A DNA stretch of 64,000 bases from Eubacteriales bacterium (GTDB lineage Bacteria; Bacillota; Clostridia; Christensenellales; CAG-138), in contig JAQUTY010000007.1 in NCBI GenBank assembly GCA_028694155.1, positions 50,901 through 114,900 of the forward strand. Direction: 5' to 3'. Positions 24,869 through 34,217 of this stretch are shown here, one piece after another. The position numbers and the translations under genes are program-made. Within the stretch, counting starts at the first letter, position 1. Each line of letters opens with the position of its first letter. The notes beneath the pieces were generated by a model, which was not told where the DNA came from, made no database searches, and saw only the letters and a program-made list of their open reading frames with translations.

Positions 24869-25838
24869 GCTTAATCTTCCTAAACGGCAGCATCACAAAA
24901 TAGAATAAACGTGGGCTAAGGCAATACAGGAAGGTCTTTAAGCCAAGCACGGATCTGCGTCCATTTATGGCGTACACCTCCTTGCGGTACTTTTTGCACT
25001 CCAACTTCCACGCCTTGAGAATGCTCTTATCTTCAAACCTAAAGTAGAAAATATCGTAGCCCAGCTCAATCATTATATTGACATATCCATTGACACCGCT
25101 ATTGTGCAGCATGGGATAGAACTCGTCCGCAAAATCCAGCATCCATTTAAGCGCAACCGACCCCGTAAGCTGTCTTGCCGTTATTTTTCCTCTTGCGGCA
25201 CTGCCCTCACTTTGGACATAATGATAATATGGGGTGTCGGTACACACAATCCTTTGGGCATTTTTTATCGCTTCGATTGCAAATATCGTGTCCTCGCCTC
25301 TGAAAATATCAATGTGGTATCTCGTGTCGCCAATGATTGCCCTCGAATAGACCTTTGTGACGGAGAATGGCGCAACTCGGTAAATCAACTCCATCGCCTG
25401 TTCATTGCCAATAACCCCACACACGTCCTTTTTGAAGCGATGCTCCTGTGGCTGCTGTCCCACATAATCCACCGAGTATGAAAACATCGCTGCATCGGCT
25501 TGGTTTGTGCAAATTTGCTCCATTAGGTCGCTATATGTGTTCGGCTCAATCCAATCGTCGCAGTCAATAAACGATATCCAATCGCCCTTTGCAGCATCAA
25601 TTCCGTTGTTTCTGGCAGTCGATACGCCGGCATTCGCTTGAGAAATCAGCCGAAATCTGCTGTCACGCTCGCAAAATTGCTCGATGACCTTTTGGCTCCC
25701 GTCTGTCGAACCGTCGTTTACTATGATGAACTCCAAATTCGAGTACGTCTGGCATGATAAGCTCTCAAGGCAAGCGTTCAAATAACGTCCCCCATTGTAA
25801 ACCGGTACAATTACTGAGAGCAACGTTCCATCTTTCAT
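24858..25838 (-). CDS. glycosyltransferase family 2
   Basis: 326 aa. LSVIVPVYNGGRYLNACLESLSCQTY...VNDGSTDGS...IDCDD. Confidence 0.85.
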   Translation of the reverse strand: MKDGTLLSVIVPVYNGGRYLNACLESLSCQTYSNLEFIIVNDGSTDGSQKVIEQFCERDSRFRLISQANAGVSTARNNGIDAAKGDWISFIDCDDWIEPNTYSDLMEQICTNQADAAMFSYSVDYVGQQPQEHRFKKDVCGVIGNEQAMELIYRVAPFSVTKVYSRAIIGDTRYHIDIFRGEDTIFAIEAIKNAQRIVCTDTPYYHYVQSEGSAARGKITARQLTGSVALKWMLDFADEFYPMLHNSGVNGYVNIMIELGYDIFYFRFEDKSILKAWKLECKKYRKEVYAINGRRSVLGLKTFLYCLSPRLFYFVMLPFRKIKHGQ

Positions 25839-26836
25839 GGCAATAACTCCTCCATTGCTCTCAAGCGTTTTTCGGGCGACAAATCAAAATTATCAAGCAT
25901 CTTTACTTGCGACAAGGGACGCTTGACAAAGTCGATATCAATTTCGTTTGCATTTGAATAGCTCTGCATCTGGCAAGGATTGAAAAAGGGTTCGCTCATT
26001 AGCTCATCAGAATTTGTCAGCAGCTTTCTTTTGTAGGCTATTGCCTCCAATGTTCTCATGGTTGTACCATGTGCGCCGGCTTGGTTGACCTCTAAAATGC
26101 ACTTAGCATTGAGCATATTTTTAAGATATACCCCATAGGGCATGGGCTGAATATAGTGCAGACCCTCTCCCTCCTCCTGCTTATCCATATCAACGCCAAC
26201 GATGTTGAAATTGCACTTTGCGCCCGCATTGACAAGCCTGTGGTATGCGGACATGATTGCGGTAAGCCTGTTTTTAGCATATCCTAGAAAATATACATCG
26301 TCCTCTTGCTCGTCTGCAGTTGTGGTGTCCTCAATCGTCTGCGCATACATCGTCTCTTCAATAAACGCTATTGAGAACTTTTTTGCTTCCTCTTTTTCAT
26401 ATGTTGTGATCAAGTCGGCTTTATTTTTGAACATCTCAATGGTTGGTGCACTGTCTTTTATCAGGTCAAGATATGACAACACTATCTTGCAGGTTGGATC
26501 ATTCCGCCTAAGATAATCCATAAACTCCCCATTATTCTGCCTTGCGTACTGCGCCCCCAACAGAACATAGCAATTCGGTTTGTCATTGTCAAAGGGCTTG
26601 CCCATCATGCGCTTATACCAGATCCTGTGAAGCGGCAGCTTAATCCTGCGGTTGACCTTTGCCGACCAATGGAACTTGAACATCTTTTGCATCAATCTGT
26701 TCTTGCTGTCAATTCCGGAGCTTAGCACTCTGACATTGTCCAAGCTTCTAAGGCAGCCCAGAATCGGTTCGAGATAGTCCGCATTGACAGAAAAAATTGT
26801 GAAATTGTATTTGTAGTTACTTCTTTGGCTTATCAT
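25835..26836 (-). CDS. hypothetical protein, possibly a GT-B-like transferase
   Basis: 333 aa, soluble. I recognise no family. The segment DDVYFLGYAKNRL...YLKNMLNAKCILEV recalls C-terminal halves of capsule transferases. Confidence 0.35.
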   Translation of the reverse strand: MISQRSNYKYNFTIFSVNADYLEPILGCLRSLDNVRVLSSGIDSKNRLMQKMFKFHWSAKVNRRIKLPLHRIWYKRMMGKPFDNDKPNCYVLLGAQYARQNNGEFMDYLRRNDPTCKIVLSYLDLIKDSAPTIEMFKNKADLITTYEKEEAKKFSIAFIEETMYAQTIEDTTTADEQEDDVYFLGYAKNRLTAIMSAYHRLVNAGAKCNFNIVGVDMDKQEEGEGLHYIQPMPYGVYLKNMLNAKCILEVNQAGAHGTTMRTLEAIAYKRKLLTNSDELMSEPFFNPCQMQSYSNANEIDIDFVKRPLSQVKMLDNFDLSPEKRLRAMEELLP

Positions 26837-31923: not shown

Positions 31924-32898
31924 TTACAGATTCTCCTTGTACCACTCGATTGCCAGTTTTATTCCATCTTCAAAGCTATAATCGGGGTCGTAGCCTAAAA
32001 GACGTTTTGCCTTTGAAATATCGGCGTTGCTGTGCTTGATGTCGCCCGCACGGTCGGGGCCGAATTTTGGTTCGATGTCCTTGTTCAACGCCTGTGTTAA
32101 GCCGTGATATATGTCTATAAGATACTCTCTGCCACCGTATGCAATATTGTATGCCTGACCTGCCGCTTCCTTGGGTGCGAGCATTCCCTTTAGGTTCGCT
32201 TCGACCACATTTTCTACATATGTGAAGTCTCTGCTCTGCTTGCCATCGCCATTGATAACGGGCTGCTCACCGTGCATGAGCTGCTTGATAAACTTGGGAA
32301 TTACCGCTGCATATGCGCCATCGGGATCCTGTCTTCTGCCAAACACGTTGAAATATCTGAACCCGATCGTTTCCAGTCCATAGTGCATATAATACATCTT
32401 GCCATATTCTTCATCGCAGCGTTTTGTAAGAGCATAGGGCGAAAGAAGGTTGCCCTCCCTGCCCTCGGTCTTTGGAAGAATCGGCTCATCGCCATAGACG
32501 CTGGAGCTTGAAGCATAGCAAAAACGCTTGACGCCATTCTGCCTTGCTGCCTCCATCATGTTTAGCGTGCCGCGAATGTTGATTTCCTCATACAAAAGGG
32601 GCATGGCAATGCTCCTAGGGACAGAACCCCACGCCGCCTGATGCGAAACATAATCGACACCCTTACAAGCAGCCATACAGGTATCAAGGCTGCGAATGTC
32701 GCCCTCGATTAGCGTAAAATTCGGATTTGCCTTGAACGGCTCTACATTCTCGCGCTTGCCCGTCGAAAAATCGTCAAGGCAACGCACTTTGTATCCCATC
32801 TGGAGCAACGACTCAACGATGTTCGACCCGATGAACCCTGCGCCACCTGTGACCAGAAAAACCGAATCCTTGGGGAAAATCAGATGTTTATATCCCAT
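31924..32898 (-). CDS. TviC/WbpP-like NAD-dependent UDP-GlcNAc(A) 4-epimerase
   Basis: 324 aa. Long collinear similarity to my recollection of Salmonella TviC: VTGGAGFIGSN, DDFSTGKRENV, HQAAWGSVPRS, SSSSVYGD, LSPYALTK, RYFNVFGRRQDPDGAYAAVIPKF, NGDG..SRDFTYVENV, GD..HS.ADISKA. Confidence 0.75.
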   Translation of the reverse strand: MGYKHLIFPKDSVFLVTGGAGFIGSNIVESLLQMGYKVRCLDDFSTGKRENVEPFKANPNFTLIEGDIRSLDTCMAACKGVDYVSHQAAWGSVPRSIAMPLLYEEINIRGTLNMMEAARQNGVKRFCYASSSSVYGDEPILPKTEGREGNLLSPYALTKRCDEEYGKMYYMHYGLETIGFRYFNVFGRRQDPDGAYAAVIPKFIKQLMHGEQPVINGDGKQSRDFTYVENVVEANLKGMLAPKEAAGQAYNIAYGGREYLIDIYHGLTQALNKDIEPKFGPDRAGDIKHSNADISKAKRLLGYDPDYSFEDGIKLAIEWYKENL

Positions 32899-34217
32899 TA
32901 CAGCCTCCAGTAGTAGTAGCCTGCGTCCTCAAATTCCTTGCGACTTAGCAGACCCTTTATGTCTAGCAGCACCCTTTTATCATCCTTGAACAGCTCGTCC
33001 ATCTGCGCTCTTGTGATGGAGGTAAAGTCCGTATGCGCCACCGCCAGAATGACTGCGTCCATATTCCTGATTTCGTCCATCGATACAAACTCCACCCCAT
33101 ATTCACGCTTCGCCTCGGCAGCATCTGCCTGCGGATCGGTGATGAGTGGCTCGATGCCGTATTCTTTGAGTTCATTGACTATATCAATTATCTTCGTATT
33201 TCTCGTGTCGGGACAGTTCTCCTTGAATGTGAAGCCCAAAATGGCAACTCTTGCATGCTGAACAGGCTTATCCGACTTGATGAGCTGCTTTACAAGGTTC
33301 TCGGCAACATACTTGCCCATGTCGTCATTGATGCGTCTGCCTGCCAAAATGATCTGACTGTGATACCCCAGCTCCTCCGCCTTATATGTAAGATAGTAGG
33401 GATCAACGCCAATGCAATGTCCCCCAACAAGACCGGGAGCAAATTTAAGAAAGTTCCATTTTGTCCCTGCTGCTTCAAGCACCGCCTTTGTATCTATGCC
33501 CATCTTATTAAAGATGACCGAAAGTTCATTCATAAATGCTATGTTTATATCACGTTGGCTATTCTCAATGACCTTTGCGGCCTCGGCGACCTTTATGCTC
33601 TGTGCTCTGTGTACTCCTGCCTCGACCACCAGCTCATACACCTTGGCAACCGTATCGAGCGTCTCATCGTCCATACCGCTGACAATCTTTGTGATAGTCT
33701 CCAATCTGTGTACCTTATCGCCCGGATTGATGCGCTCGGGACTATATCCTATCTTGAAATCGACTCCGCACCTAAGTCCACTCTCACGTTCCAAAATGGG
33801 AACGCAAATGTCCTCAGTTACTCCCGGATAGACCGTGCTTTCGAACACAACGATGCTGCCCTTACAGAGATTTCTTCCAAGGATTGTGCTTGCCCCCTCA
33901 ACGGGACTTAAATCCGGAGTATGATCCGGGTTCACGGGTGTGGGAACTGCTACAATGTGAAATTTGGCTTCTCTCAGCTTTGTTTCATCCGAGGTGAAGT
34001 CAACCTTGCACGCTGAAATAGCATCGTTGCCAACCTCTTTGGTTGGATCTACTCCGCTTCTGTACATGTCGATTTTATGCTTGTTGAGATCAAAGCCTAC
34101 AACATTCAGTTTCTTGGAAAATGCCACCGCTATGGGCATTCCAACATAGCCCAAACCCACCAGTGACAGCTTCTCCTCATGGTTAATCAGTTTTGCGTAA
34201 AGATCATTCATACTCAT
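32898..34217 (-). CDS. TviB/WbpO-like nucleotide-sugar 6-dehydrogenase (UDP-GlcNAc to UDP-GlcNAcA)
   Basis: 439 aa. Blocks shared with TviB as I recall it: GLGYVG.P.AV.F, VGFD.N, VPTP, ESTVYPG.TE, GYSPERINPGDK.HRL, SIKVAEAAKVIEN.QRD.NIA, PGLVGGHCIGVDPYYL, ILAGRR.ND.MG, ILGFTFKENCPD.RNT.IID. Confidence 0.8.
   Translation of the reverse strand: MSMNDLYAKLINHEEKLSLVGLGYVGMPIAVAFSKKLNVVGFDLNKHKIDMYRSGVDPTKEVGNDAISACKVDFTSDETKLREAKFHIVAVPTPVNPDHTPDLSPVEGASTILGRNLCKGSIVVFESTVYPGVTEDICVPILERESGLRCGVDFKIGYSPERINPGDKVHRLETITKIVSGMDDETLDTVAKVYELVVEAGVHRAQSIKVAEAAKVIENSQRDINIAFMNELSVIFNKMGIDTKAVLEAAGTKWNFLKFAPGLVGGHCIGVDPYYLTYKAEELGYHSQIILAGRRINDDMGKYVAENLVKQLIKSDKPVQHARVAILGFTFKENCPDTRNTKIIDIVNELKEYGIEPLITDPQADAAEAKREYGVEFVSMDEIRNMDAVILAVAHTDFTSITRAQMDELFKDDKRVLLDIKGLLSRKEFEDAGYYYWRL

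Follow-up and report, generated by a model that had tools for sequence, protein, structure and literature searches.

Organization of the glycan locus

The window analyzed here, a 64,000-nt stretch of contig JAQUTY010000007.1 (assembly GCA_028694155.1) from an uncultured gut Eubacteriales bacterium (Clostridia), contains a minus-strand operon of ~24 closely packed or overlapping genes, delineated from the ORF list and Pfam assignments. A promoter-like site (37381-37353, minus strand) and a terminator-like hairpin (12561-12542, minus strand) were found for this operon, and its gene order is identical on an independent Logan contig. All five ORFs singled out by the first-pass annotation are present in the ORF list where it had placed them, on the minus strand. 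The region is best explained as the central part of a heteropolysaccharide operon of the Wzx/Wzy type. In addition to a TviB/TviC-TupA-CapA block, the operon encodes a DegT aminotransferase, a Bac_transf initiating transferase, a GT4, a GT2, a pyruvyl-transferase fusion, rmlACB, a second DegT, a GNAT, another GT2, a polytopic membrane protein, and a second NDP-6-deoxy-sugar set. The features of interest are as follows.

12556..37199, minus strand: whole glycan operon
35308..36000, minus strand: small Bac_transf phosphoglycosyl transferase (PF02397, E = 1.6e-54; one hydrophobic segment)
32898..34217, minus strand: TviB/WbpO-like UDP-N-acetylhexosamine 6-dehydrogenase (three UDPG_MGDP_dh domains, Pfam)
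31924..32898, minus strand: TviC/WbpP-like SDR 4-epimerase (Pfam Epimerase, E = 4e-59)
30952..31923, minus strand: TupA2, TupA-like ATP-grasp amidoligase, type without CapA coupling (PF14305, E = 5.6e-47)
30054..30962, minus strand: GT2 glycosyltransferase, Glycos_transf_2 (PF00535, E = 2.5e-24)
28947..30044, minus strand: EpsG-family (Wzy-type) repeat-unit polymerase (PF14897, E = 9e-45; eight hydrophobic segments)
27943..28908, minus strand: TupA1, TupA-like ATP-grasp amidoligase, first gene of a two-gene cassette (PF14305, E = 2.8e-48)
26817..27941, minus strand: soluble CapA/MslH-type calcineurin-fold metalloenzyme, second cassette gene (PGA_cap PF09587, E = 4e-51)
25835..26836, minus strand: WaaS/CpsH-family glycosyltransferase, 333 aa (NCBIfam NF053598, 128.9 bits; cutoff 60)
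15848..17398, minus strand: polytopic membrane protein, 516 aa (at least 10 hydrophobic segments)

The Bac_transf protein initiates repeat-unit assembly on the lipid carrier, and the TviB-like dehydrogenase provides the uronic acid. For the dehydrogenase the top NCBIfam model was TviB (492.9 bits, under the equivalog cutoff of 592), compared with 219.9 bits for UDP-ManNAc dehydrogenase and 117.9 for TuaD; for the epimerase it was TviC (295.8 bits, far under the cutoff of 760). The TviB-like and TviC-like labels given on first reading are thus fair, these being the best models even though both scores lie below their cutoffs, and we infer that the pair yields GlcNAcA or GalNAcA. The 333-aa ORF had been called unclassifiable, and Pfam returned only a sub-threshold Glyco_trans_1_2 match, but the NCBIfam score assigns it to the WaaS/CpsH-family glycosyltransferases. 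The 516-aa membrane protein, which had no match in Pfam or NCBIfam, is probably a Wzx-type flippase. Homologues of this protein turn up repeatedly in related glycan loci.

TupA1 and TupA2 are supported as carboxylate-amine ligases

TupA1 and TupA2 share 36.7% identity, and both fall within the ATP-grasp family PF14305 far over threshold (for TupA2 with ATPgrasp_TupA, 160.7 bits; cutoff 25). The start of the minus-strand TupA1 ORF is listed as 28908 or 28938; an independent gene call of this locus begins at the ATG at 28908 (321 aa). The motif set on which the TupA-like assignment was originally made was found in the translations, namely EKLQWLKL/EKLWWLKL, THGS/NHGS, DYKFMCFDGEPK, and RVDFY..GK..FGELTFFPGGG/RVDLY..GK..FGEITFYHGGG, and all family-invariant residues are retained in both proteins. 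An AF2 model of TupA1 (pLDDT 93.6) adopts the ATP-grasp fold, and its top PDB matches by Foldseek were the carboxylate-amine ligases ArgX/LysX, Ddl, RizA, and RimK. These nearest structural neighbors are amino-acid-adding ligases. Together, the Pfam matches, the invariant residues, and the modeled fold support the assignment of TupA1 and TupA2 as bona fide TupA-like ATP-grasp carboxylate-amine ligases. Pfam assignments and coordinates also agree with the earlier observation that the pair brackets the EpsG-type polymerase and the GT2.

Proteins of this kind are named "ATP-grasp fold amidoligase family protein" at NCBI, and TupA itself, after which the family is named, is linked to a glucuronate/gamma-L-glutamate polymer (teichuronopeptide). 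Homologues of TupA1 with 53-69% identity occur across Clostridia and Bacteroidota. Close relatives of TupA2 in metagenomes (at least 46% identity) have no CapA-like gene directly downstream, and AsnB-type amidotransferases adjoin such CapA-less loci. AsnB-type enzymes represent another carboxylate-amidating chemistry. Most TupA-like genes lack any phosphatase neighbor.

According to the first-pass annotation, the substrates of TupA-like ligases were all biochemically undefined. That statement is out of date, as the C-terminal domain of Campylobacter jejuni Cj1438 (Cj1438C), the only biochemically characterized member of the family, amidates the C6 carboxylate of capsular glucuronate (PMC11800379, PMC12409886). 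Amidated uronates are still the best prediction because of the ligase identity, the adjacent uronate genes, and the Cj1438C precedent; with a TupA-like substrate already defined, however, uronate amidation becomes the expected function rather than a novel one. We therefore regard amidation of a glycan carboxylate by the TupA-like proteins as probable, with a uronate as the likely acceptor by analogy to Cj1438C. Candidates for the attached amine are amino acids, amino alcohols, and peptides, and the modification could take place on the nucleotide sugar, the lipid-linked unit, or the polymer. A survey of neighboring genes revealed no gene for amino-alcohol-phosphate supply, no racemase, and no HAD phosphatase recurring beside the cassette, a result consistent with the presumed attachment of a free amino acid.

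The first-pass annotation also counted a third ATP-grasp gene in the same locus. This gene exists, but it is encoded on the other strand as part of a distinct unit that converges on the operon end, the two being separated by the terminator-like hairpin:

11466-12539, plus strand: ATPgrasp_ST ligase (PF14397, E = 1.7e-28)
10936-11454: GNAT gene in the same unit
9698-10909: NTP_transf_5 gene in the same unit

The suggestion that up to three ligases act on the repeat unit is consequently weakened.

The CapA-like protein is a predicted cytoplasmic relative of MslH

The ORF beside TupA1 was correctly placed in the CapA (PGA_cap) family, and its closest solved relative is MslH, a peptide C-terminal epimerase that acts on the peptide-bound C-terminal residue and not on the free amino acid. 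The protein belongs to a large soluble subfamily of ~375 aa and has no transmembrane segment, signal peptide, or N-terminal anchor; in its AF2 model (pLDDT 90.8) β-strand 1, with the GD motif, already begins at residue 4, leaving no anchor, and we predict a cytoplasmic location from the sequence and model. MslH was the top PDB match by sequence (E = 1e-7), profile (6e-15), and Foldseek (2e-19), compared with ∼1e-9 (best 7e-10) for generic phosphoesterases, among them YmdB-like phosphatases and 5'-nucleotidases. Identity to MslH is only ~17%, and the best NCBIfam model, epimerase_MslH, scored 48.6 bits, far under its cutoff of 700.

Among 51 diverse representatives, no variation occurs at D10, E48, N88, H89, D92, H214, or H216, and conservation of H182 is at least 90%. 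All MslH catalytic residues, D11, E44, N87, H88, D91, H259, and H295 (defined in PMC10406935), have equivalents in the subfamily that are either invariant or conserved to at least 90%. H182 aligns to MslH H259, and a Gly aligns to MslH H261; an invariant Glu lies two residues past this Gly and four past H182. In the close subgroup, D10, C12, E48, N88, H182, H214, and H216 place potential ligands at 7/7 canonical metal-ligand positions. Where phosphoesterases have the motif-I histidine, the protein has a Cys instead, and this Cys varies across the wider subfamily. Calcineurin-fold phosphoesterases use the same conserved residues as metal ligands and general acid, so that conservation does not separate an epimerase from a hydrolase.

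Ligase and CapA-like genes are paired across genomes

We found 516 species-level loci encoding the soluble CapA subfamily and inspected the best 80, which are not phylogenetically independent. A TupA-like gene lies within 3 kb in 67/80 of these, in every case on the same strand as the CapA-like gene and upstream of it (37 directly adjacent and ~22 with one GT4 gene between). Cultured carriers exist, among them Faecalimonas umbilicata DSM 103426. A RimK-like ATP-grasp gene stands beside the CapA-like gene in seven of the remaining 13 loci, one of which also has an ATPgrasp_ST. Within these best 80 of 516, an ATP-grasp ligase accompanies the subfamily in nearly every case, in glycan loci of the Wzx/Wzy type, and most loci contain one CapA-like gene paired with one ligase. 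Since the partner may be TupA-like or RimK-like, the constant feature is an amino-acid-type amide ligase of any family. Functional coupling of the CapA-like protein and the ligase is highly probable. The TupA1-CapA pair is widespread, cross-phylum, and apparently undescribed, and this gene coupling is what is new; amidation itself follows from existing knowledge.

Discussion

The family memberships, the predicted cytoplasmic location, the intact active-site residues, and the cross-phylum gene coupling are directly supported. As a tentative explanation of the whole, which we put at slightly under even, we propose the following pathway. The TviB/TviC-like enzymes would form a UDP-N-acetylhexosaminuronic acid (GlcNAcA or GalNAcA), and glycosyltransferases would assemble the lipid-linked repeat unit at the cytoplasmic membrane face. 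Soluble TupA1 and TupA2 would then activate uronate carboxylates to acyl-phosphates and join these to an amine, for which a free amino acid is the most probable candidate, to give amide-decorated uronic acids. The product of TupA1, as first half of the cassette, would be modified by the cytoplasmic CapA/MslH-type metalloenzyme, and TupA2 would add a second, different amide without a CapA-type partner. Our best guess for the modification is epimerization at the α-carbon of the amide-linked amino acid, with its free carboxylate bound to the metal, such that the glycan would bear a D-amino-acid amide. This last step, drawn by analogy to MslH, is a possibility that we hold with less than even confidence. 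As a counterpoint, an Escherichia coli O-antigen cluster with a capA gene is reported to direct a polymer with plain GlcA; by its gene list, that cluster has no ATP-grasp gene (PMC10606467).

Alternatively, TupA1 might join the uronate to a phosphorylated amine such as O-phosphoserine, ethanolamine phosphate, or serinol phosphate, and the CapA-like enzyme would strip the phosphate, as required before the next glycosyl transfer, in the manner of the HAD phosphatase Cj1435 but without homology to it. Cj1438C offers a precedent, as it uses ethanolamine phosphate or serinol phosphate and dephosphorylation by Cj1435 is obligatory before chain extension (PMC12409886). The metallophosphoesterase fold, with YmdB-like phosphatases and 5'-nucleotidases among the Foldseek matches, the filled metal positions of the close subgroup, and the strict ligase-then-CapA order, which suits an obligatory follow-up step, are all compatible with such a role. 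However, no PGA_cap member is known as a phosphatase and the sole characterized one is an epimerase; MslH is structurally far closer than the best phosphoesterase; and the motif-I histidine is lost with no conserved substitute. Amino-alcohol-phosphate supply genes of the Cj1436/Cj1437 type are absent around the cassette, and the lack of phosphatase neighbors at most TupA-like genes also argues against this role. Characterized RimK-class ligases use plain amino acids, yet a RimK-like ligase can replace the TupA-like partner. We consider dephosphorylation unlikely.

The reaction order could also differ, the CapA-like enzyme acting before or beside the ligase by racemizing or preparing the free amine, or as an editing amidase that removes misplaced amides. 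Tight gene coupling alone leaves the order unfixed, and active-site conservation shows only that the protein is an enzyme; however, the ligase gene is invariably first, MslH acts on a peptide-bound residue, and amidase or free-amino-acid racemase activity has no precedent in the family, making this arrangement improbable.

The first-pass annotation instead derived CapA from the poly-γ-glutamate (PGA) machinery without CapB/CapC, with up to three ligases extending oligo-glutamate or peptide chains on the uronate, as in teichuronopeptide. PGA_cap membership is consistent with this idea, as is the genetic link of TupA to teichuronopeptide (polyglucuronate/poly-γ-L-glutamate); loci with 2-4 TupA-like paralogues, which are common, would suit stepwise peptide building, and the RimK-type partners elsewhere belong to the enzyme class that makes oligo-glutamate tails. 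PgsA/CapA of PGA synthetase is membrane-anchored, whereas the protein described here lacks an anchor and is predicted to be cytoplasmic. The 64-kb window contains no CapB/CapC, its only Mur-type ligases being MurD and MurE of the dcw cluster, and we know of no polymerizing role for CapA. With the third ATP-grasp in a separate convergent unit and one CapA-like gene per ligase in most loci, recruitment from PGA synthesis is not supported for this soluble, ligase-paired subfamily, and the chain-extension model as a whole has little probability. Least probable by our estimate is modification of a protein or small molecule, as suggested for the TupA-like Klebsiella protein CfmP, required for a fimbrial modification independently of surface polysaccharides (PMC13419641): CfmP is encoded away from glycan loci and its N-terminal domain is divergent, whereas TupA1 and TupA2 are within a polysaccharide operon straight after the uronic-acid genes, and relatives are fused to Wzy polymerases and, in more than 100 loci, have GT, Wzy, and Wzx genes as neighbors.

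Our preferred reading, ligation followed by modification of the amide product, can be set beside two known systems. Cj1438C depends on phosphorylated amino alcohols and a later phosphatase, whereas the cassette loci lack the corresponding supply genes. PgsB-PgsA shows the same pattern of a ligase with a CapA-type protein, and the discoverers of MslH proposed that CapA acts there as an epimerase and so brings D-Glu into PGA (PMC8179263).

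The glycan operon and its surroundings

The locus under study lies within a minus-strand operon that, in the ORF list, extends from 37199 to 12556 and comprises approximately 24 tightly packed genes, with a promoter-like site before the first gene and a terminator-like hairpin after the last. An identical locus is present on an independent Logan assembly. The source organism is an uncultured Eubacteriales bacterium; other parts of the window encode SpoVAD and a dcw cluster, as would fit a spore-forming Firmicute. All items listed in a first-pass annotation made from the sequence alone, including the sequence motifs, were recovered by Pfam and in the translations.

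Genes of the glycan operon in operon order (Pfam/NCBIfam assignments; all on the minus strand)
First gene, minus strand, DegT aminotransferase
Second gene, minus strand, small Bac_transf initiating transferase
Third gene, minus strand, GT4, preceding the TviB-like gene
32898-34217, minus strand, TviB-like UDP-sugar 6-dehydrogenase
31924-32898, minus strand, TviC-like SDR epimerase
30952-31923, minus strand, TupA2, TupA-like ATP-grasp protein
30054-30962, minus strand, GT2
28947-30044, minus strand, EpsG/Wzy-type polymerase
27943-28908, minus strand, TupA1, TupA-like ATP-grasp protein
26817-27941, minus strand, PGA_cap/CapA-family protein (CapA-like protein)
25835-26836, minus strand, WaaS/CpsH-family glycosyltransferase
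Next gene, minus strand, GT2
22511-24868, minus strand, pyruvyl-transferase/4Fe-4S/FrhB fusion, 785 aa
After the 785-aa fusion, minus strand, rmlA, rmlC, rmlB, then a second DegT, GNAT and GT2
15848-17398, minus strand, 516-aa membrane protein with at least 10 hydrophobic segments; no Pfam/NCBIfam match
12556-15851 (last in the operon), minus strand, second NDP-6-deoxy-sugar gene set

The best-scoring NCBIfam models for the dehydrogenase and the epimerase were TviB (492.9 bits versus an equivalog cutoff of 592) and TviC (295.8 bits versus 760). Because both scores fall below the equivalog cutoffs, we regard the two genes as members of these families, with UDP-GlcNAcA or UDP-GalNAcA as the predicted product; the earlier designation as UDP-GalNAcA genes fits the families and names one of these two candidate products. 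The 333-aa ORF beside the CapA-like gene, previously called unclassifiable, is a recognizable glycosyltransferase (NF053598, 128.9 bits versus a cutoff of 60). Homologues of the 516-aa membrane protein recur in related loci (e.g., a 509-aa gene of a Faecalimonas locus), and this protein is probably a divergent Wzx-type flippase. The operon holds two separate NDP-6-deoxy-sugar sets, one at 20054-22514 (minus strand; rmlA/rmlC/rmlB) and the other at 12556-15851 (minus strand; a second nucleotidyltransferase, a 4,6-dehydratase-like SDR, a 3,5-epimerase, and a further SDR). Together with the two DegT genes and the GNAT gene, these sets imply several deoxy- or amino-sugars in the repeat unit. The 785-aa fusion (22511-24868, minus strand) joins a polysaccharide pyruvyl transferase to a 4Fe-4S dicluster and an FrhB/FdhB-like (F420-reducing hydrogenase beta) C-terminal domain, and its homologues lie just 3' of the ligase-CapA cassette (a TupA-like or other ATP-grasp ligase gene with a soluble CapA-like gene) in nine related loci; it may introduce a reduced pyruvate-derived (1-carboxyethyl/lactyl) or ketal substituent, i.e., another carboxylate in the glycan.

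A further module, next to the operon end, was assigned by Pfam.

Genes beyond the operon end (Pfam)
8489-9661, minus strand, NTP_transf_5 "uncharacterised nucleotidyltransferase"
9698-10909, plus strand, NTP_transf_5 "uncharacterised nucleotidyltransferase"
10936-11454, plus strand, GNAT
11466-12539, plus strand, ATPgrasp_ST ligase, convergent with the operon end

The ligase at 11466-12539 had been counted as a third ATP-grasp gene of the same locus; it is an ATP-grasp gene, but it lies on the strand opposite to the operon, in a separate convergent unit with the GNAT gene and an NTP_transf_5 gene. A few other loci likewise have an ATPgrasp_ST gene close to TupA-like or CapA-like genes. Approximately 7 kb from the glycan operon are three tandem NAGPA "phosphodiester glycosidase" paralogues of 348, 334, and 341 aa (44213-47354, minus strand). 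Genes for histidine ammonia-lyase, urocanase, formiminotransferase, and an amidohydrolase (2075-7760, minus strand) adjoin the glycan region and represent ordinary histidine utilisation.

The TupA-like ligases

Profile-HMM searches placed the two ligase ORFs in the ATP-grasp family PF14305 (160.7 bits over profile positions 1-240 of 241, and 165.0 bits over 1-235 of 241, versus a cutoff of 25) and the CapA ORF in PGA_cap (PF09587), in agreement with the families first proposed. TupA1 and TupA2 share 36.7% identity, and both keep all of the family invariants; K126, H129, G130, R165, E166, D192, K194, R271, D273, and E285 (TupA2 numbering) were invariant in 23 sequences that included both paralogues. 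The AF2 model of TupA1 (pLDDT 93.6) is an ATP-grasp structure, and its nearest solved structures are amino-acid-adding carboxylate-amine ligases: Foldseek returned ArgX, LysX, Ddl (D-Ala-D-Ala ligase), RimK, and GshB (glutathione synthetase) at a probability of 1.00, with RizA also among the nearest. At the sequence level TupA1 matched no PDB chain at E ≤1, and no TupA-like structure has been solved.

The statement in the first-pass annotation that no TupA-like ligase has a defined substrate is overtaken by Cj1438C, the C-terminal domain of Campylobacter jejuni Cj1438. This domain joins ethanolamine phosphate or serinol phosphate in amide linkage to the C6 carboxylate of the capsule's glucuronate, after which the HAD phosphatase Cj1435 strips the phosphate from the product (PMC11800379, PMC12409886). 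Amino-acid addition is generally predicted for the TupA-like genes of O- and K-antigen loci (PMC13419641). Close homologues carry the NCBI name "ATP-grasp fold amidoligase family protein", the wall polymer linked with the original TupA consists of polyglucuronate and poly-gamma-L-glutamate, and the ligase genes of the window directly follow the TviB/TviC-like genes in a Wzx/Wzy operon. By analogy with these systems, the TupA-like ligases quite probably amidate the uronic acid of the locus. Since such amidation already follows from what is known of the biochemistry and from existing annotation, the earlier prediction of an amidated uronate was sound, but it is expected rather than new.

It is common for a locus to carry two to four TupA-like paralogues. 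Some relatives are fused to other proteins. The TupA-like domain is fused to a Wzy_C or O-ag_pol_Wzy polymerase in two related loci (L136:4726-6885 and L113:4492-6936), the L136 fusion gene being directly followed by a CapA-like gene. In another (L128:1-1908) it is fused to a radical SAM/SPASM domain, which might modify the ligated group by another route. In human-gut contigs L096-L105 and L110 (at ∼6.9-8.8 kb), the TupA2-type gene is directly followed by a gene for a 629-aa glutamine-dependent asparagine-synthase-type (AsnB-type) amidotransferase, with a second copy two genes upstream; this arrangement suggests that such loci combine the amidation of uronates by ammonia with the ligation of amines to uronates.

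The CapA-like protein

The PF09587 match of the CapA-like protein scored 174.3 bits (cutoff of 27) and covered profile positions 2-255 of 255. In its AF2 model (pLDDT 90.8), the strand that bears the GD motif, beta-strand 1, starts at residue 4; no N-terminal hydrophobic segment or anchor was found in the protein, and its sole hydrophobic stretch (residues 250-268) forms a beta-hairpin in the model. When nearly all window ORFs of 150 aa or longer were scanned with Pfam, no CapB/CapC (PgsB/PgsC) appeared; MurD and MurE, in the dcw cluster approximately 30 kb away, were the sole Mur-type ligases. Likewise, no PgsB or PgsC was seen in the related loci inspected. Both ligases and the CapA-like protein lack TM segments and are predicted to be soluble and cytoplasmic. 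The missing anchor and the missing PgsB/PgsC partners in the window argue against PgsA/CapA sensu stricto. At E ≤1e-30, the soluble CapA subfamily (∼375 aa) comprises 4,932 clusters at 50% identity; its top 150 representatives are all 250-460 aa in length (all but five 354-409 aa), start at residues 1-24 with no N-terminal extension, and include no CapA-ligase fusion.

The closest solved relative, by sequence and by fold (Foldseek E of 2e-19), is MslH, and YmdB-type phosphoesterases matched the fold at approximately 1e-9 (best E of 7e-10). The score for the MslH epimerase model NF038314 (48.6 bits versus an equivalog cutoff of 700) points to a distant MslH relative rather than an orthologue. 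MslH, which has a single metal, is a Ca-dependent epimerase of the C-terminal Trp in a lasso-peptide precursor, and mutagenesis showed D11, E44, N87, H88, D91, H259, H261, and H295 to be essential (PMC10406935). Among 51 subfamily representatives that are 31-46% identical to the window protein, the equivalents D10, E48, N88, H89, D92, and H216 were invariant and H182 (equivalent to MslH H259) was at least 90% conserved. Conserved equivalents thus exist for seven of the eight essential MslH residues, and these argue for an enzyme with an intact MslH-like centre; since phosphoesterases share the residues, they do not single out epimerase chemistry. The remaining residue, MslH H261, aligns with G184; E186, two residues after G184 and four after H182, is invariant. 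Of the canonical calcineurin motifs (DxH / GD / GNH(D/E) / H / GHxH, with a dinuclear site), III-V are present as NNH..D, H182, and xH214xH216. The motif I His of calcineurin-like phosphoesterases is replaced (by C12 in the close subgroup and variably in the wider subfamily), and the motif II Asp is replaced by E48.

Cysteines near the active site are also invariant in the close subgroup (GD-x-C12-P and C212-Q-H-S-H-C217), the latter where the second site of MslH reads GHGPHF; they may be metal ligands or acid/base groups. Across the wider subfamily, conservation of at least 90% extends to C217 and C353 but not to C12.

Conservation of the ligase-CapA cassette

We scanned one genome per GTDB species, obtained 516 loci containing the soluble CapA subfamily, and inspected the best 80, which span Clostridia, Negativicutes, Bacilli, Bacteroidota, Akkermansia, Alphaproteobacteria, Fibrobacter, Atribacterota, and Anaerolineales. 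In 67 of these best 80 of 516 loci, a TupA-like gene is found no more than 3 kb from the CapA-like gene, in every case (67/67) upstream and on the same strand. Among the cultured carriers of the cassette are Faecalimonas umbilicata DSM 103426, Sporomusa malonica DSM 5090, Flavobacterium tegetincola, and Tissierella creatinini. The two genes are directly adjacent in 37 of the 67, as in the window; most non-adjacent pairs are separated by one GT4 gene or an acyltransferase. Thirteen of the 80 loci lack a TupA-like gene, two of them ending just upstream of the CapA-like gene. RimK-like ATP-grasp genes flank the CapA-like gene in seven of the 13 (one of these seven also has an ATPgrasp_ST gene), and a Planococcus locus has an Asn-synthase-like gene nearby. 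When both ligase families are considered, the CapA-like gene is paired with an ATP-grasp amide ligase in 74 of the best 80 of 516 loci. The coupling of ligase and CapA-like gene is conserved in order and across phyla.

The reverse relationship did not hold: a CapA-like gene follows only 9 of 65 evaluable metagenome TupA-like genes, and none was found downstream of the close relatives of TupA2 among them. With biased sampling, CapA coupling of the TupA-like genes is not strictly monophyletic. Nearest-neighbour labels agreed for 63 of 72 coupled and 38 of 56 uncoupled genes, so that a clean clade of CapA-coupled TupA-like genes was rejected, and the C-terminal LPxPNxN motif of TupA-like proteins does not mark the coupling. 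The genes around the cassette encode glycosyltransferases (GT4, GT2), Wzy/EpsG, Wzx, and acyltransferases; no amine-supply, racemase, or phosphatase gene recurs beside it. A UDP-sugar 6-dehydrogenase gene is found within 10 kb of the CapA-like gene in only 31 of the 80 loci, which places tviBC outside the conserved core.

A second cassette type was seen in four Bacteroidales loci (L055, L061, L070, and L084; at ∼10-15 kb in each) with, in this order, CapA-like, RimK-like (up to three paralogues), GINT1_N-domain (546-559 aa), and GT4 genes. The O-antigen cluster of E. coli SD2019180 resembles this order, with capA, orf12 (546 aa, hypothetical), and GT4 (PMC10606467). That cluster has no listed ATP-grasp gene, its polymer is reported to contain unmodified GlcA, and capA was left unexplained by the authors (PMC10606467), making it a cautionary case for our reading of the cassette.

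Our literature search, outside which the 2009 Iyer/Aravind amidoligase paper lay, found no description of the ligase-CapA cassette, and no experimental proof of CapA function was found in the literature searched. The ligase-CapA/MslH cassette, which is widespread in gut and environmental bacteria, appears to be undescribed, and its conservation is what sets the finding above the ordinary.

Proposed function of the cassette

We propose that TupA1 would form an acyl-phosphate on the uronate of a lipid-linked repeat unit (or of a nucleotide sugar) and couple it to an amine, and that the CapA-like enzyme would then act on the TupA1 product. For this second step we tentatively favour epimerization. 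The only characterised PGA_cap member is an epimerase; it acts on an N-acyl amino acid whose carboxylate is free, a chemical type that includes uronoyl-amino acids; the constant partner in the cassette is an amino-acid-adding ligase of whichever ATP-grasp family, mirroring PgsB-PgsA; and no genes supplying phosphorylated amino alcohols accompany the cassette. That CapA itself is the epimerase behind the D-Glu of poly-gamma-glutamate has been put forward as a proposal (PMC8179263). On a still more guarded footing, soluble CapA/MslH-type enzymes may serve carboxylate-amine ligases (TupA-like, RimK-like, ATPgrasp_ST, and, by extension, PgsB) as their dedicated epimerases, turning a ligated L-amino acid with a free alpha-carboxylate into its D-form on the sugar.

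The main rival reading, that the CapA-like enzyme is instead a phosphoesterase stripping phosphate from a ligated phospho-amine, is compatible with the sequence, agrees with the usual chemistry of the calcineurin fold, and has a direct functional precedent in the C. jejuni sequence of Cj1438C and then Cj1435; set against the cassette's lack of phospho-amine supply genes, we consider it unlikely. Each of the remaining readings seems improbable: that the enzyme prepares or edits the substrate, that the target is not a glycan (as for CfmP), or that oligo-glutamate or peptide chains are extended. The last was the model of the first-pass annotation, which had CapA recruited from the poly-gamma-glutamate machinery to build a peptide hybrid; it finds no support in a protein of a soluble subfamily that has no anchor and no CapB/CapC in the window.

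With amide-decorated uronic acids, a bacterial surface glycan changes in charge, in antigenicity, and in its recognition by phages or the immune system. To our knowledge such uronic acids are documented almost only in Gram-negative pathogens; the window locus and its relatives suggest that uronate amidation is common in gut commensals (Clostridia, Bacteroidota, Akkermansia). Study of CapA in poly-gamma-glutamate synthetase has been hindered by a complex that is membrane-bound and unstable, and the near-obligatory pairing of a soluble CapA with an ATP-grasp ligase offers a tractable soluble system for studying the function of the family. If the CapA-like protein is an epimerase, it would represent a new route to D-amino acids in glycans and a cofactor-light biocatalyst for N-acyl amino acids. 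If the partner-epimerase generalization also holds, D-amino-acid-decorated surface polysaccharides would be widespread, with the gene in at least 516 GTDB species, among them gut Clostridia, Bacteroidota, and Akkermansia, and the same chemistry would explain the long-unknown role of CapA/PgsA in poly-gamma-glutamate synthesis.

Comparison with known systems

PgsA/CapA of PgsBCA(E) belongs to the same Pfam family (PGA_cap) as the CapA-like protein and is likewise paired with an amide-forming ligase, PgsB. PgsA is membrane-anchored, in a membrane complex with PgsB and PgsC, whereas the CapA-like protein is soluble, has neither of these proteins nearby, and is encoded in a polysaccharide operon. 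TupA of Bacillus halodurans C-125, the name-giving member of its family, is associated with teichuronopeptide, a wall polymer made up of a polyuronic acid and an amino-acid component. That polymer consists of polyglucuronate and poly-gamma-L-glutamate, unlike the Wzy-type heteropolysaccharide of the window. Uronate carboxylates of surface glycans are also amidated in the O-antigens of Proteus and Providencia, with WemR-type ligases as the predicted enzymes, and in WbpS/AsnB-type uronamide formation. All of these belong to Gram-negative LPS, with assignments that are likewise predictions; we know of no CapA-type partner reported for any of them.

Cj1438C provides the nearest parallel for the ligases: like TupA1 and TupA2 it is a TupA-like ATP-grasp enzyme, its ATP-dependent amidation targets the C6 carboxylate of a uronic acid in a surface polysaccharide, and a dedicated second enzyme then acts on the attached group (PMC11800379, PMC12409886), as the CapA-like partner would. 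It differs in being fused to a GT2 and serving an ABC-transporter-type capsule (C. jejuni HS:2), whereas the window ligases stand alone in a Wzx/Wzy operon; its amines, ethanolamine phosphate and serinol phosphate, come from locus-encoded enzymes that have no counterparts in the window locus; and its follow-up enzyme is a HAD phosphatase rather than a CapA/MslH-type protein. For the CapA-like protein, the best sequence and fold match is MslH (PDB 8GQ9), likewise a soluble calcineurin-fold protein, whose dyads His88/Asp91 and His295/Asp11 and metal ligands Glu44, Asn87, and His259 have conserved equivalents. The two proteins are only ∼17% identical, differ in length (440 aa for MslH versus 374 aa) and in their C-terminal helical domains, and diverge at motif V (GHxxH in MslH versus xHxH) and at the H261 position of MslH, which is Gly in the CapA-like protein; MslH acts in a RiPP cluster with MslB1 as its partner, whereas the CapA-like protein is encoded in a glycan operon with an ATP-grasp ligase as its partner.
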